Positions 671 through 13,868 of a stretch of DNA of 13,868 nt are shown here, one piece after another (position 1 is the stretch's first letter; the number at the start of each line of letters is the position of its first letter). Both the position numbers and the translations under genes were made by a program. The notes below the pieces were generated by a model. The model saw only the letters and a program-made list of their open reading frames with translations, did no database searches and was not told the origin of the DNA. Origin of the DNA: a virus; UHGV virus genome UHGV-0175553, one strand, 5' to 3'.

Positions 671-1816
671 TTAAAGTGGACGTGCGCCAGTCGGCATCGT
701 CACGGGTTTATTAAAAACAGATTCTGCCAGTGTGCTATGACCTTTACGCGGGTCACTGTCAGGTACTAAAACTGGCTGACCTTCTGGTTTTGTCGTACAC
801 ATGTCAACAAGTGCCGGAGGCAGTGATTTTTCCAGTGTTGACAACGGTTTTAATTTACGTTCGTACAATGTTTCAGGGTTTACACCAAACATAGGTGCAG
901 CACCGATCAGTTTACCTTCGTCCGTAAGCTGACGTCGGGTTTGCTTTGTTGCAAGTTTAAAACCCGGTAAAGCCTTACCCATACGTACAAAATGTAACCC
1001 CTGAGTATGTAACGCTGTTTTTGCTTCAGAAGAACGCGTATACAATTCTTCAAGAAGTGCCAGACGACGCGCTACTTCTTCTGGCGTAAGTGATGGTGGT
1101 GCATCAAGAACAGTAGCCAATTCTAAAACCCTCTCATACATCGCCGGACACATACCACGCGCCGGACAGTAATGACAATGACTACCAACATTTAACGGTG
1201 CGTCTGGTTTATGTGCTTCGTTAAACCCGTGTTTAAATCGTTCAGCCCATTCCATCAATGTTGCCCGGTTAAACTCCCATCGTCTTACAGGTCCGAGTGG
1301 GTGATAAGCCCGTGGCTGAACAATTGTGAACACAACGCGCTTAACAGTATCAATACAACGTTGGTCCAGTGCGTAATAGACCCCCTGTGAATTATCAACT
1401 GCTTCAACTGCAACATGACCGTATTTATAATCCCATACGTAAAGCGTATCAGTATTAAAGTCATACCAGCGATAATCACAGGTTCCGTACTGACCGGGTA
1501 ACAACCAGTCAATGTGAATGCGAACTTCTGAAAACAGCGGATCAAGTTTCGCACCAACTGAAAGAACATCTGCTATAAAGTCATCCGCATAAATATGCAT
1601 GTCTTCAGTAACCTGAACACCGTTAGGAGCAAGACACGGCATTAATGGCGGTTTACCTTTAATCTTCTGTTCTAACACCCAGTGCCCGGCTGTACCTTCT
1701 TCAGCACTGGGTGATGATGGTTCTACATAGTCAATCCGCTGTGACAGTTGAACGCTACCCGGACAAGCTAACCAACGTTTTGATCCACTGGCACTAAAGG
1801 TAGCGTGACTGCTCAT
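671..1816 (-). CDS. Cas4-like PD-(D/E)XK nuclease with Fe-S cysteine cluster (DUF2800-like)
   Basis: 381-aa ORF. N-terminal RWLACPGS cysteine, VWDYKYG (D-x-K catalytic-type motif), C-terminal HCHYCPARGMCP (C-x2-C-x5-C) giving a 4-Cys Cas4/RecB-like arrangement. Start overlaps the stop of the upstream gene at 1816. Confidence 0.8.
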   Translation of the reverse strand: MSSHATFSASGSKRWLACPGSVQLSQRIDYVEPSSPSAEEGTAGHWVLEQKIKGKPPLMPCLAPNGVQVTEDMHIYADDFIADVLSVGAKLDPLFSEVRIHIDWLLPGQYGTCDYRWYDFNTDTLYVWDYKYGHVAVEAVDNSQGVYYALDQRCIDTVKRVVFTIVQPRAYHPLGPVRRWEFNRATLMEWAERFKHGFNEAHKPDAPLNVGSHCHYCPARGMCPAMYERVLELATVLDAPPSLTPEEVARRLALLEELYTRSSEAKTALHTQGLHFVRMGKALPGFKLATKQTRRQLTDEGKLIGAAPMFGVNPETLYERKLKPLSTLEKSLPPALVDMCTTKPEGQPVLVPDSDPRKGHSTLAESVFNKPVTMPTGARPL

Positions 1817-2568
1817 CAGAATGCTCCACCCATTTGTTTAACAGATTCAGCCTGACCAACAATGTTTTCAGCATCAGCCGGGGCCGCGTTAATGCGTTCA
1901 ATCAGTTCGATGATAGATTTCAGTTTTACCGGGTCGTCAATCTGCATCACGTTCTGAGTTTCATACAGTCCCATGATTCGCTGACTTAATGGCGCAGCAC
2001 GGTCACCCGTAATTTGTCCAAACATCTGCATCAGTGCTGACTGAAGAACCTGTGTGTTATAAACTTTAGCCGGATCCGTGGTTACAGGTTGCTCGACAGG
2101 CGCGACTGGTGCAGCCGGTGCTGCTGGTACAACTGGAGCTACCGGAGCGGCAGGAACCGCTGGAGCAGGATCAACAGGTGCTACATAACCTGGTGCAAGT
2201 TCTGCAGGTCCGGTATAACGCCCTGCTTCAACTGCTTCAGCGATAAGTTCACGTTTAACACCGTCAACAAACGCTTCATCCAGTTTTTTCTTTTGACGCC
2301 ACAGACCATCACCTTTGTTCAGGGATTTACTGTCAGTGTGGATACGCGGATCATGACGCAAACCCCATTTGTCGAACTCTTCAGTGCTGGTTTCGTTATC
2401 GTCAACATCTTCAGTTGGTGTAGATACAACAGGCAGTGATTCAGCAACGACAGAAACGATTTCTTCTTTCGTAATCGGTGAGACACTTTTACCAGCAATC
2501 GCTGCTGCCAGATTGTTGATCGCAGTTTCCAGACCCGGAGCAGTTACAAGTAATTTAACTTCGAACAT
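1816..2568 (-). CDS. Hypothetical protein, two segments joined by an Ala/Pro/Val-rich linker
   Basis: 250-aa ORF, first gene of the minus-strand operon; RBS GAGGAAAACG upstream of ATG at 2568. Contains PAPAVPAAPVAPVVPAAPAAPVAPV linker. No recognisable catalytic motif. Confidence 0.65.
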   Translation of the reverse strand: MFEVKLLVTAPGLETAINNLAAAIAGKSVSPITKEEIVSVVAESLPVVSTPTEDVDDNETSTEEFDKWGLRHDPRIHTDSKSLNKGDGLWRQKKKLDEAFVDGVKRELIAEAVEAGRYTGPAELAPGYVAPVDPAPAVPAAPVAPVVPAAPAAPVAPVEQPVTTDPAKVYNTQVLQSALMQMFGQITGDRAAPLSQRIMGLYETQNVMQIDDPVKLKSIIELIERINAAPADAENIVGQAESVKQMGGAF

Positions 2569-2600
2569 TACGTTTTCCTCTTGTTGTTTGGTTGTCGCTA

Positions 2601-2641
2601 ACTTTAAAAGGTGTTGTGTAATCTGTCAAGAATTATTTTAC
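2601..2641 (-). promoter_or_regulatory. Sigma70-like promoter for the minus-strand operon, carrying the conserved AAAATAATTCTTGACAGATTAC element
   Basis: Minus strand reads gtaaaataattcTTGACAgattacacaacacctttTAAAGTt: -35 TTGACA (2630-2625), 17-18 bp spacer, -10 TAAAGT-like; about 25 nt upstream of ATG at 2568. Confidence 0.55.
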
Positions 2642-2678
2642 ACTCGCCTTTCGTTGATGCAGATGTTAGAGGAATAAG

Positions 2679-2707
2679 TTGCAATGCGTCAAGAACTATT
2701 TTAAAAT
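2679..2707 (+). promoter_or_regulatory. Candidate sigma70 promoter for the helicase operon
   Basis: TTGCAA (2679-2684), 17 bp spacer, TAAAAT (2702-2707), about 30 nt upstream of ATG 2739. Its spacer overlaps a second, degenerate minus-orientation copy of the conserved element (plus-strand cgtcaagaactattttaaaa, 2687-2706). Confidence 0.45.
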
Positions 2708-2738
2708 TTTTTCACGATTCGATATTACAGGGTAGAAA

Positions 2739-4400
2739 ATGAAAGCTCGTTATTATCAGACTGAAGCTATCAATAACGTATGTCAGGCATGGTCAAGCGG
2801 TGCTGACGACGTGATTCTTGTGCTTCCCACGGGGGCAGGAAAAACGTTCTGTATGTCTGAACTGGTAAAAACAAGAGACGGTGTAAAAGTCATCCAGGCA
2901 CACCGTAAGGAACTGGTTAGCCAAATCGCAATGGCTGTTGCTCGTCAAGGGTTAGCACACAGATTTATAGCGCAAAAAGATACTGTTAAGTTTGCAACTA
3001 ATCAGCAGATGAAAACGCTTGGTTACAGTACCTATTCCCCCGGCGCTGACATCGTTATTACCAGTTCACAAACGTTAAGAACAAAACAGTACGAACGATG
3101 GTACAACGACGTGTCTCTTGTGTTCAGCGACGAAGCGCATCACCTGGTACGTGGCACACAGTGGGGAGACTGCCGGGAAAAATTCCCTAACGCTAAAGGT
3201 CTGGGTGTTACAGCTACACCGATCCGTGCTGACGGTAAAGGCCTGGGTCGTCATGCGTCAGGTTACGCAGATCAAATGATCATTGGTCCGTCAATGCGTG
3301 AGTTAATCAGTCAACAACATCTGGCTGATTATCGTCTGATTATGGCTGAAACAGACCTGGAATTAACTGCAGAAATGATTTCTCACACGACGGGTGATTA
3401 CAAACCATCTGCATTAAAAAAAGCGATGGAAGATTCAAACATTGTTGGTGATACCGTCAGTACGTGGAAAACATATGCAGATGGCTTACTCACTGTTGTT
3501 TTTACGTGTGACGTAGATTCTGCTGAAGCACTGGCAAAAGAATTTCGCGATGCTGGTATTCCTGCAGAGGCGATCAGCTCACGAAACAGCAATCAGGAAC
3601 GAGCGGATATCCTGGAACGTTTTGAACGACGTAAGACGCTTGTACTGTGTAACAACGATTTATTCGGTGAAGGATACGACTGTCCGGCAATGGAATGTGC
3701 AGTAATGGACCGTCCCACAGAATCTTACTCTTTGTTTGTACAACAAATGGGTCGACCATTGCGTTTCAAACCGGGTAAAAAAGCACTGATTATTGATAAA
3801 GTCGGTAATGTTCGTCGATTTCTGGCCCGTGGTTTTCCACTTCCCGATCAGCACTACAACTGGTCTTTAGATGACCGTGACCGTCGTTCATCAAACAGCA
3901 GTGGGAACAGTAACACAACGTGTACAAACAAGGGTGATCCTGATAACGGTATTCCACCGTGTCTGAAGCCTTATCCGTCTGGTCTGCCGTGCTGCCCATA
4001 TTGTGGTCATATTCCTGAAAAAGCCGAACGCTCAGGCCCGGATCGTGTAGAAGGTAATTTACGTGAACTGACACCTGAAGAACTGGAAGAATTACGCCGG
4101 GCAGTTGTGATAATCGACCGTGACCCTGTTGCAGTAAAAGAACAAATGTTAAACGCTGGTGCACCCCCTGTTGCAGCTTACAGTGCAATGAAAAACATTC
4201 AGGCAATGAACGATGCACAGCGTAAGTTACGCGGCATGATTACCACATGGGCGGGTATTCAACGTGATAAAGGTATACCCGTTGATGACGCTTACAAGAT
4301 GTTTTACAGGGTGTTTGGTGTTGATGTACTTAGCGCTCAGGGGTTACGTACTCGTGAAGCTAATGAACTCGCTGCAAGGGTTGCAAGTTCATTAATCTGA
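2739..4400 (+). CDS. SF2 DEAD/DEAH-box helicase (ResIII-like ATPase core) with C-terminal Cys-rich extension
   Basis: 553 aa. Q-motif YYQTEAI, Walker A LPTGAGKT, DEAH box FSDEAHH, motif III TATP, motif VI QQMGRPLR. C-terminal extension has a Cys cluster CLKPYPSGLPCCPYCGH. Confidence 0.9.
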   Translation: MKARYYQTEAINNVCQAWSSGADDVILVLPTGAGKTFCMSELVKTRDGVKVIQAHRKELVSQIAMAVARQGLAHRFIAQKDTVKFATNQQMKTLGYSTYSPGADIVITSSQTLRTKQYERWYNDVSLVFSDEAHHLVRGTQWGDCREKFPNAKGLGVTATPIRADGKGLGRHASGYADQMIIGPSMRELISQQHLADYRLIMAETDLELTAEMISHTTGDYKPSALKKAMEDSNIVGDTVSTWKTYADGLLTVVFTCDVDSAEALAKEFRDAGIPAEAISSRNSNQERADILERFERRKTLVLCNNDLFGEGYDCPAMECAVMDRPTESYSLFVQQMGRPLRFKPGKKALIIDKVGNVRRFLARGFPLPDQHYNWSLDDRDRRSSNSSGNSNTTCTNKGDPDNGIPPCLKPYPSGLPCCPYCGHIPEKAERSGPDRVEGNLRELTPEELEELRRAVVIIDRDPVAVKEQMLNAGAPPVAAYSAMKNIQAMNDAQRKLRGMITTWAGIQRDKGIPVDDAYKMFYRVFGVDVLSAQGLRTREANELAARVASSLI

Positions 4401-5609: not shown

Positions 5610-7964
5610 ATGAAAGGGTTACTGAACCGTAAACAGTGGGTCATGTGGCGACTTGAGACAGTCGCCGATCGTCCAAAACCAACGAAAGTACCATACAGCC
5701 CGGTACACGGTTATAAAGCCAGTACCACTAACCCTAACGACTGGTCTGACTATCACACCGCGTTGGGTATGGCGCAAATGTACGGTATGTCCGGTGTTGG
5801 TTTTGTATTCACAGAAAATGACCCTTATTTCTTTATCGATGTTGATAACTGTCTGGTAGATCAGGCAACAGCTACGTGGTCACCTCTGGCGCATGAATTC
5901 GTAAACCGTTTCCCAAATGCTTACACTGAAGTAAGTCAGTCAGGAACAGGTTTACATATCATCTGTGCTTATACCAGCATACCGGAAGGTTTTAACAGTC
6001 TTAACGACCAGAAAACCGGGCTGGAAATGTACTGGCGTGATCGTTTCGTCGCGATGACACTCACGGGTAATGGTGATGTTGATATTGATTATACCCAGGG
6101 CATTCATGATTCTATTGCCCGGTATGGTCGTATCCGTTCAGACCGTTCCGCACGCTGGACAACAGCACCCTGTGATGACTGGTCAGGTCCGGCAGACGAT
6201 GATGAACTGATTAAAATGGCGTTAAATTCGTCCAGTGCTGCTTCAGTATTTGGTAATAAAGCGTCATTTGCGGATCTGTGGAATGCAAACGTTGAACGCC
6301 TGTCTGTGTCATATCCCAGCGACCAGGGAAAAGACTACAATGCATCTGCCGCTGATGCTGCCCTGTGCTCACACCTTGCGTTCTGGACCGGGAAAGATTG
6401 CGAACGTATTGAACGATTGTTTAACCGTTCCGGGCTGGTTCGTGGTAAATGGACAGATCGTCAGGATTACCGTGAAAACACGATTCTGGGCGCTGTGGAA
6501 CGTTGTGATACGGTTTATCGTAGTCAACCGACACTGACACCAGAACTGATGAAAGCAGTCACACCAGCGCCTACCGTCGTTCCTAACGGTGGAACACCTG
6601 CGTACATGAGTGTGAAACCCGGTGAAGGTGCATATGGTTCAAACCACACGGTTAACGCATCCACGTTCGTTAATAACTATTATCCGAACAACACATTGAT
6701 TTTCGTCCAGCAACAGCCGTACCGGTTCAACGGTCGTGTGTGGGAACGTGTCAGTGAAGATGAACTGAAACATCAAATTTCTATGGCAATGCTTGCCAGC
6801 GAACCAAAAGCTGACGTGATTAATGGTACGTACAAGGTATTGTCGTATTTATTCACACGCGCTGATCGTGAGCTTGGAACATGGCCCGGTGTTGATGTAT
6901 CACACTATATTGTTTGTCAGAACGGGATACTGGATGTACACACGGGTAAATGTGATGCACATAACCCGGATTTCTTTACGACCAGTATTTTACCGTATAG
7001 CTACGATCCATTTGCTCGTGCACCAGCGTTTGAACAGTTTTTAAATACAACTCTGGAAGGTGATCAGGAACGTATTGCACTGTTGCAGGAATGGCTGGGT
7101 TACATGCTTGTCAACTCGTATGACTATCAGAAAGCGATGCTGTTGATTGGTGCACCACGTTCCGGTAAAGGCACGATTGGTCGTATCATTCAGGCACTGG
7201 TAGGTGATGAAGCGTATGCGGGGATCACACTGGAGGGTTTAGCTAGTGATGCGGTACTTGAAACTGTGCTGGATAAATCTGTGCTGTTTATCGGTGATGC
7301 TCACAGTGTGTCCGGGCCTGATCGCAACCGAATTCTGGACCGTTTCAAATCTATTACAGGTTGTGATGCGATTCCGGTTAATCGTAAATATAAAGGTGCA
7401 TGGAACGGTCGTTTACCGGGACGTATGACACTGGCTGCTAACAACATCCCGGCATTTGCTGATGATTCCGGTGCAATGGCTAACCGTTTGCTGATCCTGC
7501 CATTCAACATTTCGTTCCTGGGTCGTGAAGATACTACTCTGGAAGCACGACTGATGAAAGAACTACCGGGGATCTGTAACTGGGCGATTGAAGGTTTACA
7601 ACGGTTACGTGCAAACGGACGGTTTACTGAACCAAAAGCAAGTCTGGAAGAACGTCAGGAAATTATGGATCAACAATCACCACTTAGAAGTTTTATCAGA
7701 GATTGTTGCGAATTGGTATCTGATGGTGAGGTGCACACTGAAGAACTCTATGGTCGTTATCGTCTCTGGAAAACACAGGAAGGTGGTCCAGCAATGACTA
7801 AAACTGCATTTAGTCGGGCGTTTAAATCCACCCTTCGTGGTAAAGTGAAAAAAGACGTTGTTAATATAAATAACGTACGACTAAACGGTTTCAGGGGTAT
7901 TCGTCTTCTCCCTTTTCAGTCAACAGCTAATGTAGTGCCTTTCCCACCTGCGAGTAACGGTTAG
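5610..7964 (+). CDS. Bifunctional primase-polymerase / SF3 helicase (prim-pol N-terminal domain, PriCT-like region, D5_N/P4-type helicase)
   Basis: 784 aa. Prim-pol motifs FFIDVDNC (acidic metal site) and SQSGTGLHIIC (SxSGxGxH). Central AADAALCSHLAFWTGKDCERIERLFNRSGL resembles a primase C-terminal (PriCT) region. C-terminal half has Walker A GAPRSGKGT and Walker B-like LFIGDAHS. Confidence 0.9.
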   Translation: MKGLLNRKQWVMWRLETVADRPKPTKVPYSPVHGYKASTTNPNDWSDYHTALGMAQMYGMSGVGFVFTENDPYFFIDVDNCLVDQATATWSPLAHEFVNRFPNAYTEVSQSGTGLHIICAYTSIPEGFNSLNDQKTGLEMYWRDRFVAMTLTGNGDVDIDYTQGIHDSIARYGRIRSDRSARWTTAPCDDWSGPADDDELIKMALNSSSAASVFGNKASFADLWNANVERLSVSYPSDQGKDYNASAADAALCSHLAFWTGKDCERIERLFNRSGLVRGKWTDRQDYRENTILGAVERCDTVYRSQPTLTPELMKAVTPAPTVVPNGGTPAYMSVKPGEGAYGSNHTVNASTFVNNYYPNNTLIFVQQQPYRFNGRVWERVSEDELKHQISMAMLASEPKADVINGTYKVLSYLFTRADRELGTWPGVDVSHYIVCQNGILDVHTGKCDAHNPDFFTTSILPYSYDPFARAPAFEQFLNTTLEGDQERIALLQEWLGYMLVNSYDYQKAMLLIGAPRSGKGTIGRIIQALVGDEAYAGITLEGLASDAVLETVLDKSVLFIGDAHSVSGPDRNRILDRFKSITGCDAIPVNRKYKGAWNGRLPGRMTLAANNIPAFADDSGAMANRLLILPFNISFLGREDTTLEARLMKELPGICNWAIEGLQRLRANGRFTEPKASLEERQEIMDQQSPLRSFIRDCCELVSDGEVHTEELYGRYRLWKTQEGGPAMTKTAFSRAFKSTLRGKVKKDVVNINNVRLNGFRGIRLLPFQSTANVVPFPPASNG

Positions 7965-7982
7965 TCATTGCACAAGGATGTG

Positions 7983-8023
7983 TAAAATAATTCTTGACGA
8001 ATTACAGATGTGTACGCTATAGT
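7983..8023 (+). promoter_or_regulatory. Sigma70-like promoter with the conserved upstream element
   Basis: taaaataattcTTGACGaattacagatgtgtacgcTATAGT: -35 TTGACG (7994-7999), 18 bp spacer, -10 TATAGT (8018-8023). A short inverted repeat TGTAC...GTACA overlaps the -10. Confidence 0.6.
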
Positions 8024-8054
8024 CTGTACATCAAGTGAACAAGGAGTGATTATT

Positions 8055-8252
8055 ATGAAAAACATATTTGACCGTTTAATTACTGTTATCGTATTTCTTG
8101 TGTCCGTAACACTCGCGTCTTGTATTGTCGGACTAATGACCCGTGGTAATCATGCGGAAACACCGTGGTGGTTTCTGGCGGATCTTGGATTATTAGCGGC
8201 TGCGGCATCAATTGGTGCTTGCATGTGGGGAGTGAAAAACGATCATGACTGA
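8055..8252 (+). CDS. Small membrane protein with lipoprotein-type signal (lipobox LASC)
   Basis: Preferred start ATG 8055 with RBS AAGGAG 8 nt upstream (the track's GTG start at 8010 lies inside the -10 region). 65 aa: MKNIFDR n-region, hydrophobic LITVIVFLVSVT, lipobox L-A-S-C with Cys at position 23, then a second hydrophobic stretch WWFLADLGLLAAAASIGACMW. Confidence 0.6.
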   Translation: MKNIFDRLITVIVFLVSVTLASCIVGLMTRGNHAETPWWFLADLGLLAAAASIGACMWGVKNDHD

Positions 8253-8460
8253 ATTCGGTGCTGTAATCAAAAAAGAAGACCGTTATGCACATATTGATAC
8301 CCGGATTACCTGGGTTGATATTAGTGACGCTACTCTGTTCAGTTCAACTTACATGGCTGGTGTTGCACTTAAAGCACTCCGTGATCAAGGTTTCAATTGT
8401 AAAAAAGTAACAATTGCACCTGTTAAAATCACACGAATCGTCGAGGAGACAGAAGGATGA
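8245..8460 (+). CDS. Hypothetical protein (71 aa)
   Basis: ORF translationally coupled on both sides (8-nt overlap upstream, ATGA overlap downstream). No recognisable motif. Confidence 0.5.
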   Translation: MTEFGAVIKKEDRYAHIDTRITWVDISDATLFSSTYMAGVALKALRDQGFNCKKVTIAPVKITRIVEETEG

Positions 8461-9137
8461 AAGTCGTCTGGTCATTATTCGATGGTTCCGGGATCATGGG
8501 TTTACCGTGGGCTAAGGCTGGCTATCAGGCTTATTGCTTTAATGCTGATTCCGGTAATCACGGGGAATATAAAATCAAAATGCAACACCCAAATCTTCAT
8601 TACGTTAATCAGTGGATTGACCCACAATTTGCAATTAAGCAGGAAATACTGGGAACACCTTTACCGTCAATTATTTTTGGTTTTCCGGATTGCACCCTGT
8701 TTGCTCAAAGCGGTTCGCAACATGACCGGGATGACGCTGAACTACAGTATGCACTGGCAAACGCAAAACTGATCCGTGAACTCGGAGAACGTTATAACGT
8801 ACCCTGGATGGTGGAAAACCCTGTCGGTGCTTTATCGCGTCCTGAAATGATGGGACCACCTAACGCTTATTTTCATCCGTGGGAATATGGCGGTTATATG
8901 ACAACAGATGATAAACCTTTTCACCCTAAAATGCCGATGTTTGACGGATACACGAAGAAAACATGTCTGTGGTTCGGTAACGGTTTCAGAATGCCTGAAA
9001 AACGTCCCGGACCGATTAATATTGGTTTCTTCTGGGGCTGGAAATATCTGGGTGGTAAGTCTGAAACAACTAAACAATTACGTTCATTAACCCCGCGTGG
9101 CTTTGCTCGCGCTGTATTTGAGGCTAATAAACAATGA
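8457..9137 (+). CDS. Short, divergent C5-cytosine methyltransferase-like protein with no room for a target-recognition domain
   Basis: 226 aa. Motif I-like SLFDGSGIMGLPWAKAG (FxGxG...GL..AG), motif IV-like GFPDCTLFAQSG (aligns to GGPPCQxFSxAG, catalytic Cys kept, PDC instead of PC), motif VI-like MVENPVGA (ENV). RBS GAGGAG 9 nt upstream. Confidence 0.6.
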   Translation: MKVVWSLFDGSGIMGLPWAKAGYQAYCFNADSGNHGEYKIKMQHPNLHYVNQWIDPQFAIKQEILGTPLPSIIFGFPDCTLFAQSGSQHDRDDAELQYALANAKLIRELGERYNVPWMVENPVGALSRPEMMGPPNAYFHPWEYGGYMTTDDKPFHPKMPMFDGYTKKTCLWFGNGFRMPEKRPGPINIGFFWGWKYLGGKSETTKQLRSLTPRGFARAVFEANKQ

Positions 9138-9529
9138 TAATTGTCGTCACAGGTGGTCGTGACTTTAACGACAGAACAGCAGTGTTTTCCGCGTTAGGAC
9201 TACTTCACAAACAATTTCCGGTTACCGAACTAATTGAAGGAGGTGCGTCAGGTGTTGATAACCTGTGTAAGCAATGGGCGCAATTACACGGTATTCCTGT
9301 GCGTAGTTGCCCGGCAGCGTGGGACGATCTGACTGTACCTGGTGCGGTTGTAAAACAGGGTAAGCACGGGGCTTATAACGCTGTTGCAGGTCATCAACGT
9401 AATCAGGCGATGTTAGAGGGTGAACCACGCCCTATATACGGTGTTATGTTCCCCGGTGGTCGTGGTACTGCTGATATGCACCGTCGCATGTTGAAAGCTG
9501 GTTTAACTGTGTGGGTTCCGTATCCTTAA
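9134..9529 (+). CDS. SLOG-superfamily protein (DprA/LOG-like Rossmannoid, DUF2493-like)
   Basis: 131 aa. IVVTGGRDF, EGGASGVD (DprA-like GGxxGxD) and FPGGRGTADM (LOG-like PGGxGT) motifs. ATGA overlap with the MTase-like gene. Confidence 0.5.
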   Translation: MIIVVTGGRDFNDRTAVFSALGLLHKQFPVTELIEGGASGVDNLCKQWAQLHGIPVRSCPAAWDDLTVPGAVVKQGKHGAYNAVAGHQRNQAMLEGEPRPIYGVMFPGGRGTADMHRRMLKAGLTVWVPYP

Positions 9530-9566
9530 AATAATTCTTGACAGATTACCAACCCTCCCCGATAAT
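9527..9566 (+). promoter_or_regulatory. Strong sigma70-like promoter with the conserved upstream element
   Basis: taaaataattcTTGACAgattaccaaccctccccGATAAT: consensus -35 TTGACA (9538-9543), exactly 17 bp spacer, -10 GATAAT (9561-9566). GAGG RBS precedes ATG 9601. Confidence 0.7.
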
Positions 9567-9600
9567 TAGCCTCAGTTAACACACATGAGGTTAAACACAA

Positions 9601-9855
9601 ATGGCTAACAAGATTGAACTTTCCGACGCTGCGATTGATGTTATTTATGCATTATTTTTCCGTGGTGCTCTTTACTCTGGCGATTTACCGTCTAAATCAG
9701 GTGCTGCTGAACTTCGCGCTTACGGTTTTGCCGCTACGTGCGATACAAAAACTGAATATCAGAAAGAAACCTATTTCACTTTCCTTACTGCAGAAGGTCA
9801 GCAGTATGCTATCGACTTTCTGGTAAAAACTAATTTCGGACGCAAACAGGACTAA
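9601..9855 (+). CDS. Hypothetical protein (84 aa), first gene after a strong promoter
   Basis: ORF with RBS; no recognisable motif. Position directly behind a near-consensus promoter suggests early high expression. Confidence 0.55.
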   Translation: MANKIELSDAAIDVIYALFFRGALYSGDLPSKSGAAELRAYGFAATCDTKTEYQKETYFTFLTAEGQQYAIDFLVKTNFGRKQD

Positions 9856-9860
9856 CAACC

Positions 9861-10628
9861 ATGGCTAACATTAACTCCCTTCGCAAGCTGTCTGATACCG
9901 ATAAAACCAACGTAAAACGTGGTAACGCATATCGCATTGATCCGCGTATCATCAAGATTCGCCCGGGTCATAACCCACGGGGTGTGTTTACCGACAACTA
10001 CTGGGAAACTGAAGCAGCACTGGCACACATTGAAAACTTTCGTCAGGCTTATACCAACGGCGATTTCGTTCCACCGATCGTGGTACAGGTTGTTGACGGT
10101 GTTCCGTATGTCCAGGATGGTGAGCATCGTTTACGTGGCGTATTGGCAGCTATTGAGGCCGGGACGCCGATTCTGACAGTAGACGTTGTTGAATCATCTG
10201 GTGATGAACTACAGCAGACCCTGACACTATTAAAAGGTAATGAAGGTAAACCGTGGTCACCTGTTGAACGTGCTGTTATTTACGGTCGTTTCCGTTCATA
10301 TGGCATGAGTGTTGAGCAGATCGCTACACAGGTCGGTAAAACCGTCCAACATGTTTACGAACAACTGAATATTCTTGATATGCCGCTGGAACTTAAACGT
10401 CGGATCCAGAATGGTGAAATCAGCGCGTCAGCAGCCATACGCCAGTTTAAAGCAGGTGATAAAGAACCAGTAGTAACGCGTCGTCCACCTGCTAAACTAG
10501 TACGATCTGCAGTGGAAGCAATCCGTGGTGAATGGTCTGTAACCCGTTCGGAAGGTGGTAAAGTCCTGGTTGAACTCACCACTGAACAGTTCGAAGCGTT
10601 AAAAGCACTGAAGGAGCACCAGTTATGA
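9861..10628 (+). CDS. ParB/Srx-fold (ParB N-terminal domain) protein with HTH
   Basis: 255 aa. ParB box-like VQDGEHRLRGVLAA (GxxRxxA arginine-finger motif) followed by an HTH-like MSVEQIATQVGKTVQHVYEQLNIL. Confidence 0.7.
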   Translation: MANINSLRKLSDTDKTNVKRGNAYRIDPRIIKIRPGHNPRGVFTDNYWETEAALAHIENFRQAYTNGDFVPPIVVQVVDGVPYVQDGEHRLRGVLAAIEAGTPILTVDVVESSGDELQQTLTLLKGNEGKPWSPVERAVIYGRFRSYGMSVEQIATQVGKTVQHVYEQLNILDMPLELKRRIQNGEISASAAIRQFKAGDKEPVVTRRPPAKLVRSAVEAIRGEWSVTRSEGGKVLVELTTEQFEALKALKEHQL

Positions 10629-11918: not shown

Positions 11919-12152
11919 ATGAAAATTAAAAACATGGCTGCAAGTGGTCTGTCAGGCCGTATCTTTTACGGTACGATGGAAACAAAAGACGGTGGTCAGT
12001 CTGGTAAATGGTTAGCAGGAAAGCAAGACGTTACTGATATGGCGATCCGTGCAGTTGCTGAACATTGTCTTCTGACAGGGAACAAATATTCATTTACACT
12101 TAACGACGGTCGTGTGATTACACTGGCAGTAACAGAGGTACAACCATCATGA
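11919..12152 (+). CDS. Hypothetical protein (77 aa)
   Basis: Preferred ATG at 11919 (RBS AAAAGGG about 9 nt upstream); the track's 11913 start is a TTG. Stop overlaps the next gene's ATG (12149). Confidence 0.5.
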   Translation: MKIKNMAASGLSGRIFYGTMETKDGGQSGKWLAGKQDVTDMAIRAVAEHCLLTGNKYSFTLNDGRVITLAVTEVQPS

Positions 12153-12718
12153 CACCTGAACAATTCGCAACAGCAGCACACGGTGATCAACTTCGTAAGT
12201 ACACCAACGACCCATATGTGAACCACTGCCGGAACGTTGCTGAACTGGTTAAACGCTATGGTGGTACGCCGGATATGGTTACCGCTGCCTGGCTACATGA
12301 CGTCGTTGAAGATACGCCCGTGACCGTGGGTGATGTGTGTTCGCAGTTCGGTGAGACTGTGGCACGTTATGTTGATCAGCTTACTGATGTGAGTCGTCCA
12401 CACCACGGTAACCGTGTTAAGCGTAAAGCACGGGACATCGACCATTTATCACGGGCTGAACCTGTGGTAAAAACCATAAAACTGTGTGATCTGCTGGATA
12501 ACACCTATTCAATTGTCCGACACGATCCGAAGTTTGCTGTAACGTACCTGGCTGAAAAACAACTCATGCTTGCTCATCTGTCAGACGCAAGCAACCAGGA
12601 GTTATACGCACTTGTTGAGCGTGAATTGTTTAAAGCCAAATACAAACTAACGAACGTCCAGTTGACCGCGTTTGACAAACACTACGACGCACTGGTTAAA
12701 GCGATGGGGGAGCTGTGA
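12149..12718 (+). CDS. SpoT/Mesh1-like HD-domain small alarmone hydrolase (putative (p)ppGpp/(p)ppApp pyrophosphohydrolase)
   Basis: 189 aa. AAHGDQLRKY...DPYVNHCRNVA...AAWLHDVVEDT...IKLCDLLDN reproduces the RelA/SpoT hydrolase-domain signature (H-x2-Q-x-RK, PY-x2-H, LHDvvEDT, KLxDxLxN), i.e. the H...HD...D metal ligands. Size matches single-domain SAHs. Confidence 0.8.
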   Translation: MTPEQFATAAHGDQLRKYTNDPYVNHCRNVAELVKRYGGTPDMVTAAWLHDVVEDTPVTVGDVCSQFGETVARYVDQLTDVSRPHHGNRVKRKARDIDHLSRAEPVVKTIKLCDLLDNTYSIVRHDPKFAVTYLAEKQLMLAHLSDASNQELYALVERELFKAKYKLTNVQLTAFDKHYDALVKAMGEL

Positions 12719-13625: not shown

Positions 13626-13868
13626 TTATTGACCCATCATATCTTTATACATCATCAAAACAACATCATCCGGCATATTATCTACATCGCAATGCGGGTT
13701 GTGTGATAACGCATACAGCCTGATTTTCTCCTTCAAATCGCTGACATCGACTACAGGTGCTTCCACTCGTGCTACAGGTGCTTCCACTCGTGCTACAGGT
13801 GCTTCCACTCGTGCTACAGGTGCTTCCACTCGTGCTACAGGTGCTTCCACTCGTGCTACAGGTGCTTC
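13626..13868 (-). CDS. 3' end of a minus-strand gene encoding a heptad-repeat (APVARVE)n protein; N-terminus beyond window end
   Basis: Open frame continues to the last base of the window. The track's M at 13850 is an internal GTG (Val) inside the repeat, so the true start is outside the window. C-terminal sequence: ...(APVARVE)x5 APVVDVSDLKEKIRLYALSHNPHCDVDNMPDDVVLMMYKDMMGQ. Confidence 0.6.
   Translation of the reverse strand, partial: EAPVARVEAPVARVEAPVARVEAPVARVEAPVARVEAPVVDVSDLKEKIRLYALSHNPHCDVDNMPDDVVLMMYKDMMGQ
13751..13868. repeat. Perfect 21-bp direct tandem repeat (ctacaggtgcttccactcgtg), 5 full copies plus 13 nt, truncated by window end
   Basis: Read directly: identical units start at 13751, 13772, 13793, 13814, 13835 and 13856. 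In frame with the minus-strand CDS, encoding APVARVE heptads. Confidence 0.95.

Follow-up and report, generated by a model that had tools for sequence, protein, structure and literature searches.

All escape mutants of the T1-like phage K42 that overcame retron Ec86 were hit in a 711-bp 'dcm' gene. Expression of this gene raised 5-methylcytosine (5mC) in the multicopy single-stranded DNA (msDNA), as measured by liquid chromatography-mass spectrometry, and was toxic together with the retron, while a C82A/E128A/K175A/K176A mutant gave neither the 5mC rise nor the toxicity (bioRxiv 10.1101/2023.08.16.553469). The product of K42 Dcm co-migrated with a 5mC standard, and the Lys-Lys pair was assigned to substrate binding by the authors (bioRxiv 10.1101/2023.08.16.553469). 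For the viral SLOG proteins, a published comparative genomics study predicts that they sense or degrade immune signals derived from NAD+ or ADP-ribose. Here we describe a 13,868-nt stretch of phage DNA (UHGV virus genome UHGV-0175553, hereafter the window), in which a relative, 226 amino acids (aa) long, of K42 Dcm and a 131-aa SLOG protein are encoded by overlapping genes. We consider it likely that these are two independent accessory genes, one for a compact orphan Dcm-like DNA cytosine-C5 methyltransferase and the other for a stand-alone SLOG protein. The initial annotation had instead proposed a coupled module for nucleotide-level or non-specific pyrimidine modification in place of an ordinary orphan methylase. 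That proposal is not supported: a 42%-identical family member makes 5mC in DNA, the two families are not co-distributed, and the overlap joining the genes is the default in this genome.

The 226-aa protein and the compact phage methylases

The 226-aa protein contains FDGSGIMGL at residues 8-16, GFPDCTLFAQSG at residues 75-86 and ENP at residues 120-122, and thus carries the C5-methyltransferase motifs I, IV and VI in the order given in the initial annotation. These motifs are not chance resemblances because D9-G10-S11-G12, F76-P77-x-C79-T80 and N121-P122-V123-G124 are invariant in 35 aligned homologues. The S-adenosylmethionine (AdoMet)-binding motif I, F8-D9-G10-S11-G12, lies at the N-terminus. 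In motif VI, E120-N121-P122-V123-G124, the Asn, Pro, Val and Gly are invariant, while Glu120 is at least 90% conserved among these homologues and aligns with E128 of K42 Dcm. In motif IV, the invariant Cys79 aligns with C82 of K42 Dcm. The residue before it is Asp in the window protein and Pro or Ser in some homologues. The earlier reading of PDC instead of PC was fair, with PPC or PSC found at the same place elsewhere in the family.

The Dcm of Shigella phage JK16 (Warwickvirus) connects the window protein to the assayed enzyme. Its gene is also 711 bp long, and its Cys82, Glu128 and Lys175-Lys176 stand at exactly the K42 positions. JK16 Dcm and the window protein can be aligned from end to end with 42% identity (E 3e-60), and from this alignment Cys79, Glu120 and Lys167-Lys168 are equivalent to Cys82, Glu128 and Lys175-Lys176. 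The 5mC chemistry is well supported for the compact phage Dcm-like family and, by analogy with K42 Dcm, would apply to the window protein.

The recognition region is strongly reduced, giving a compactness comparable to that of the DNMT3 catalytic domain. The C-terminal third is nearly invariant in the 35 members and includes YTKKT, FWGW, LGG and TKQLRSLTPRGFARAV. Residues 173-207 (about 35), between K167-K168 and RSLTP, are likewise nearly invariant rather than variable. The earlier description of the protein as lacking a target-recognition domain was therefore right about the reduction, to about 35 residues, but unfair to a segment that hardly changes across the family. Because the C-terminal region is so well conserved, the sequences suggest that the family has one shared specificity.

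The family is large. PHROG 757 'DNA methyltransferase' matches end-to-end, over residues 1-225 (E 1.3e-79), and there are at least 655 homologues, mostly of 215-248 aa, many of which are named 'DNA cytosine methyltransferase' by NCBI. By tblastn, 1,489 of 50,697 phage records contain the compact family, and T1-like phages, Klebsiella siphophages, rV5-like myophages and many others are among the matches listed. Many records of the family are also labelled 'hypothetical protein', and many copies keep that label because Pfam PF00145 and NCBIfam miss the family. PF00145 is weakly matched by 10 of 35 relatives (best E 3.1e-6), and the PADLOC MTase_II model matches the 226-aa protein at 1.8e-4. Among PDB chains, a sequence search with the 226-aa protein alone gave nothing, and one with the family profile gave M.HaeIII only, at E = 1.

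Since the Pfam, NCBIfam and PDB sequence searches gave no usable match, the fold was assigned through structure prediction. The AlphaFold model is confident (pLDDT 91), and its significant Foldseek matches are DNMT3A/B, M.HaeIII, the prophage CP-933R methylase and DNMT2. The best structural matches are all DNA-acting C5-methyltransferases, and neither thymidylate synthase nor dCMP hydroxymethylase is among them. The model superposes 181 residues on M.HhaI and 194 on DNMT3B. The 226-aa protein is thus, as modeled, a catalytic domain of the C5-methyltransferase fold whose recognition region is strongly reduced. The AlphaFold and Foldseek check proposed in the initial annotation thereby returned a methyltransferase fold for this protein, as it did a SLOG fold for its neighbour.

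With regard to specificity, CCWGG occurs 21 times in the window where 15.1 ± 3.7 are expected. These counts are uninformative on a Dcm-type specificity because the site is neither avoided nor clearly enriched. In the BASEL study, most Drexlerviridae, which are rich in such methylases, were very sensitive to restriction systems, which argues against a blanket modification.

The stand-alone SLOG protein

The 131-aa protein contains VTGGRDF at residues 5-11, GGASGVD at residues 35-41 and PGGRGT at residues 107-112. These motifs are not due to chance either, because G7-G8-R9, G36, G40, G108, G111 and T112 are invariant in 38 homologues. The conserved SLOG motifs can be written as TGGRD, GxAxGxD, AxW, AGxxRNxxM and FPGGRGTADM. 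Pfam PF10686 (YAcAr, 'YspA, cpYpsA-related SLOG family', formerly DUF2493) gives a score of 69.1 bits (gathering cutoff 28.2; E 2.9e-19), and the same family is present in 120 of 120 homologues among the matches listed. The Pfam check suggested earlier was therefore positive for this protein, while PF00145 was not found in the 226-aa protein.

The AF2 model (pLDDT 95.8) has fold matches to LOG proteins, ShosA, DprA, ThsA and the MoCo carrier protein with TM scores of 0.55-0.69, while a sequence search of PDB chains gave only chance matches. The SLOG assignment of the initial annotation is thereby confirmed by motifs, family and fold. As modeled, the 131-aa protein is a stand-alone YAcAr/DUF2493 SLOG protein with a Rossmann-like fold. 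The YAcAr/DUF2493 family is found in 655 phage records. Among the matches listed, these are mostly phages without the compact methylase and include Vi1-like and KVP40-like phages, mycobacteriophages and Rhodobacter phages. For experimental characterisation of YAcAr, DUF2493 or phage SLOG proteins, the literature searched gave nothing beyond computational predictions and an ICP1 helicase fusion.

Separation of the two genes and the explanations weighed

The window is part of a siphophage of the 9NA-like group (Sashavirus/Nonanavirus). Bases 7900-9700 are 94-95% identical over 95% of their length to Escherichia phages PDP46 and PJ16 and to Sashavirus BDX09P1, and are partially matched by Salmonella phages Sasha, Sergei, Solent and 9NA. 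The methylase and SLOG genes lie in an accessory region directly downstream of the primase gene. Both are already named in near-identical GenBank records, as 'cytosine specific methyltransferase' and 'SLOG cluster4 family protein' in PDP46 and as 'DNA methyltransferase' and 'GTP-binding domain' in RefSeq Sasha, and are thus ordinary, previously annotated genes.

Close relatives carry the two genes separately. In phage 9NA, the order is lipoprotein, gp77, methylase, 65-aa open reading frame (ORF), HNH fragment and ParB, with no SLOG gene; in KarinMuster (Bas82), it is lipoprotein, 71-aa ORF, 65-aa ORF and SLOG, with no methylase. Phages 536P12 and AVIO78A cover the region partially, which suggests a Bas82-like state with SLOG and without methylase. 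We also observed a 65-aa ORF at the methylase position in Bas82, overlapping the SLOG start (3768-3965 of locus L003), and one at the SLOG position in 9NA, right after the methylase (4061-4258 of locus L165).

The initial annotation had proposed co-occurrence across phage genomes as a check, and we sampled the 80 closest methylase loci in IMG/VR for a SLOG gene within 10 kb and 80 SLOG loci for a methylase within 6 kb. Each direction gave 6 of 80, on the same six contigs, which all belong to one lineage; in four of the six, the genes are separated by 197-680 bp without any overlap. The immediate upstream neighbours of SLOG genes (62 loci, 42 lineages) are diverse and include sigma factors, MT-A70, NinB, ERF, ThyX, VRR-NUC, HNH, Lar and integrases. 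The wider neighbours belong to replication and recombination, namely SF2 helicase, sliding clamp, dCMP deaminase, ParB-like proteins and a protein that by eye resembles the DUF2800 nuclease encoded in the window. A general rule that SLOG stands beside a DNA methylase was also considered and rejected: a methylase lies within 6 kb at 30 of 80 loci, but the spacing is scattered, and direct adjacency occurs in two lineages only.

Both ORFs of the pair exist as initially described, and the stop of the methylase gene and the start of the SLOG gene share the four bases ATGA. However, overlaps of 4 bases or 1 base also join gene pairs at 1816, 4945, 5433, 10625, 10792, 12149, 12715 and 12891. The ATGA overlap is the default junction in this genome, arising from tight gene packing, and implies no obligatory partnership. 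Since the genes separate among close relatives, are not co-distributed and are joined by a default overlap, functional coupling of methylase and SLOG is not supported. The initial annotation had named a lack of co-occurrence in related genomes as a refutation of its proposal, and this is what the relatives show.

We therefore favour two independent accessory genes, and the doubt left in this reading lies mostly in the methylase specificity, the SLOG function and a possible loose cooperation. The 226-aa enzyme would bind AdoMet through the DGSG of motif I. Cys79 would attack C6 of a flipped-out cytosine with the assistance of Glu120 of ENPVG, and cytosines in the already replicated double-stranded DNA of phage and host would receive the methyl group at C5. 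Its most likely role would be the protection of particular restriction sites, and a possible side effect would be that methylation-sensing defences, retron Ec86 among them, detect it. The SLOG protein would bind or process a nucleotide or a nucleotide derivative. The published prediction of sensing or degrading NAD+/ADP-ribose-derived signals is one option for it, and an accessory role in DNA metabolism would also fit the gene neighbourhoods.

Several points weigh against this reading. The retron study, carried out in MG1655, took its CCWGG specificity over from E. coli Dcm (bioRxiv 10.1101/2023.08.16.553469). The 226-aa protein has no match in Pfam at E ≤ 1, PF00145 included, and none in NCBIfam, and its catalytic Cys follows an Asp where K42 and JK16 have the canonical Pro (PPC). 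E. coli MG1655 is presumably dcm-positive, with a Dcm of its own. As CCWGG was assumed from the E. coli enzyme and the host presumably carried dcm, the recognition sequence of the compact family could be short. The function of the SLOG protein is entirely inferred. In addition, Vibrio phage 141O35-1, whose primase is 40% identical to that of the window over 576 residues (E 5e-129), has a 185-aa MT-A70 adenine methylase directly after the primase, and the stop of this methylase gene and the start of a YAcAr SLOG gene overlap (2444-3336 of locus L166). Moreover, Helicobacter pylori DprA, of the SLOG superfamily, reportedly binds and stimulates methyltransferases and inhibits restriction enzymes. 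As a separate observation on the retron system, if MG1655 has its own Dcm, the K42 paper leaves the absence of retron triggering by the host Dcm without explanation.

The last two of the points against the favoured reading lead to a looser form of cooperation, in which the YAcAr SLOG, in the manner of DprA, would bind phage DNA as it enters or replicates, protect it against nucleases and stimulate the methyltransferase encoded just upstream, the two forming a facultative anti-restriction duo. We regard this as unlikely. H. pylori DprA has the same SLOG fold and is reported to stimulate methyltransferases physically; DprA structures are among the fold matches of the 131-aa protein. The arrangement of 141O35-1 recurs in two contigs of its lineage (L147 and L148, the latter at 23-1766; methylase 89% and SLOG 82% identical), and L148 has a further C5-methyltransferase ORF upstream. 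With MT-A70 in the Vibrio lineage and a C5 enzyme here, the slot upstream of SLOG therefore holds methylases of unrelated classes. On the other side, only two lineages have the genes adjacent, they share a common module ancestry, and one of them prompted the question. A non-methylase stands immediately upstream in 40 of the 42 SLOG lineages sampled, 9NA and Bas82 each manage with one gene of the pair, and the YAcAr protein, at 131 aa, is a Rossmann-like core only, lacking the additional domains of DprA. Perhaps the slot simply serves these phages as a place for anti-restriction genes. The more specific proposal, that the YAcAr SLOG serves as a DprA-like helper in the siphophages of about 58-60 kb sharing this primase, where it would bind phage DNA and stimulate whichever methyltransferase lies upstream, appears quite improbable to us; if true, the two genes would be a facultative anti-restriction pair, and a first function would be known for the DUF2493 family.

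The module of the initial annotation would have the Cys-nucleophile enzyme and the SLOG protein act as one unit, modifying pyrimidines at the nucleotide level or in DNA without specificity, for broad anti-restriction. It can draw on the gene overlap within the same predicted transcription unit, on the much reduced recognition region, on the binding or processing of nucleotides by SLOG proteins, and on a recognition sequence of the compact family that is yet to be mapped. Against these stand the separation of the genes among close relatives and their lack of co-distribution elsewhere, as well as structural matches that are best to DNA-acting C5-methyltransferases and not to nucleotide enzymes. 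Furthermore, expression of the homologue yields 5mC in DNA with no phage SLOG present (bioRxiv 10.1101/2023.08.16.553469). Phages rich in the compact family are mostly restriction-sensitive, KarinMuster, which has SLOG and no methylase, shows marked sensitivity to RM systems, and the window holds no other modification genes. Taken together, these make the module very improbable. We give equally little credence to transfer of a non-methyl group by the 226-aa enzyme (for example, carboxymethyl from carboxy-SAM, as by CmoX) or to action on RNA, as by DNMT2. CmoX candidates are recognised by an SPPC motif together with a conserved carboxylate-binding Arg, and phage CmoA and a ligase are usually encoded in their neighbourhood, while the window protein has FPDC and the window has neither cmoA nor the ligase. 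The product of the homologue co-migrated with the 5mC standard, and DNA methyltransferases outscore DNMT2 in the structural comparison, although DNMT2 is among the matches. Both activities were set aside as unlikely on motif and context grounds.

The reading of two independent accessory genes changes phage biology little, as the genes are already named and the methylase family has an assayed member. It is useful in that a compact methylase family that is very common (1,489 phage records) is missed by Pfam PF00145 and NCBIfam, and in that this family, which triggers a retron defence, has a recognition sequence never mapped directly. The YAcAr/DUF2493 SLOG family, with its 655 phage records, is without an experimentally known function, and the close relatives with both genes, with the methylase only and with SLOG only form a natural set for testing it.

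The predicted four-gene unit, its neighbours and known systems

The lipoprotein and the 71-aa ORF that the initial annotation placed in the unit both lie upstream of the pair (Table 1). A signal peptidase II site is annotated in the record of the Sasha homologue of the lipoprotein. The 71-aa ORF matched no Pfam or NCBIfam family. Because two consensus promoter-like sites frame four tightly packed genes, co-transcription of the lipoprotein, 71-aa ORF, methylase and SLOG genes is plausible, with the consensus matches as the sole basis for promoter function and early timing.

Table 1 Positions of the predicted four-gene unit and its flanking sites in the window
Feature	Position	Strand	Evidence and remarks
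Promoter-like site, TTGACG-18 nt-TATAGT	7994-8023	+	Consensus scan; AATAATTCTTGAC just upstream (7986-7998)
Lipoprotein-like ORF, 65 aa, first gene of the unit	8055-8252	+	MKNIF...LASC lipobox; PHROG 22517 'lipoprotein', E 2e-46
71-aa ORF	8245-8460	+	PHROG 26050, E 9e-48; stop overlaps methylase start (ATGA)
Compact Dcm-like DNA cytosine-C5 methyltransferase (predicted), 226 aa	8457-9137	+	DGSG, Cys79 in FPDCT, ENPVG, K167-K168, C-terminal RSLTPRGFARAV
Stand-alone SLOG protein, YAcAr/DUF2493, 131 aa	9134-9529	+	Pfam PF10686, PHROG 289, AF2 model, fold matches
Next promoter-like site, TTGACA-17 nt-GATAAT, marking the end of the unit	9538-9566	+	Consensus scan; AATAATTCTTGAC upstream (9530-9542)

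The 13-base motif AATAATTCTTGAC consists of an A/T-rich stretch followed by a −35-like TTGAC. It occurs four times in the window where 0.38 copies are expected, and every copy heads a gene block. Besides the two plus-strand copies of Table 1, there are minus-strand copies at 2625-2637 and 2688-2700, both in the gap between a 250-aa ORF (1816-2568, minus strand) and the helicase ORF (2739-4400, plus strand). In sequence, these sites look like a phage-specific promoter family. Promoters are also annotated in this region in the AVIO78A record.

The gene content of the window is that of a replication module, with a DUF2800/PD-(D/E)XK nuclease, helicase, exonuclease, D5-like primase and HD hydrolase. 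No hypermodification gene was found in the window (no dioxygenase, glycosyltransferase, CmoA or ligase), and nothing suggests steps past methylation. Rfam and tRNA scans of the window gave no match. Just downstream of the pair lies a ParB-like protein gene (9861-10628, plus strand; PF17762 HTH_ParB, PHROG 1033), which is kept beside the locus in Sasha, 9NA, PDP46, Bas82 and the Klebsiella-phage relatives. According to published work, phage DNA-modification enzymes often have ParB-domain proteins beside them or as partners. An 84-aa ORF at 9601-9855 (plus strand) matches several PHROGs, the homologous stretch sitting inside longer profiles of 179-335 positions. As these profiles are much longer than the ORF, it may be a stand-alone copy of a domain from larger phage proteins.

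The accessory region also encodes a 189-aa HD_4 domain protein (12149-12718, plus strand), named 'RelA/SpoT family (p)ppGpp synthetase' or 'metal-dependent phosphohydrolase' in related records, and this protein could be an alarmone hydrolase. At 13751-13868, there is a perfect 21-bp tandem repeat of 5.6 copies that runs past the window end. It encodes EAPVARV heptads at the N-terminus of a minus-strand ORF (13626-13850), and the Sasha record has a 'direct tandem repeat region' annotated at the corresponding place.

Of the known systems, the compact phage Dcm of T1-like phages (K42, JK16; PHROG 757) shares family and architecture with the window protein, at 236 and 226 aa, respectively, including the catalytic Cys, the ENPVG Glu, the Lys-Lys pair and the C-terminal RSLTPRGFARAVF, and is likewise an orphan gene among small phage accessory genes. 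In contrast, the window gene lies in a 9NA-like genome beside SLOG, while T1-like phages have no SLOG at the locus. The canonical DNA C5-methyltransferases (PF00145: M.HhaI, M.HaeIII and E. coli Dcm; DNMT3A/B) have the same fold, the same order of motifs I, IV and VI and the nucleophilic Cys of motif IV, but the window protein is about 100 residues shorter than M.HhaI or M.HaeIII and has no partner restriction enzyme or Vsr.

Among the YAcAr, LOG, DprA, ThsA-SLOG and ShosA proteins, the 131-aa protein is stand-alone and small, as is typical of phage SLOGs, and lacks the DprA accessory domains and any Macro, NADAR or Nudix fusion. LOG proteins carry a PGGxGTxxE motif with a catalytic Glu. On our reading of the alignment, this Glu position is Met115 in the window protein, with Asp114 adjoining, and LOG-type N-glycosidase chemistry is therefore not assured. 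Finally, the phage C5-methyltransferase hypermodification systems (C5-methyltransferase with TET/5mYOX and glycosyltransferase, and CmoA-CmoX-CmoY) resemble the locus in having a phage enzyme of the C5-methyltransferase fold that acts after replication and, as often with CmoX, a ParB-like gene nearby. They differ from it in their dioxygenase, glycosyltransferase, CmoA and ligase genes and in the SPPC motif, in place of which the 226-aa protein carries FPDC.

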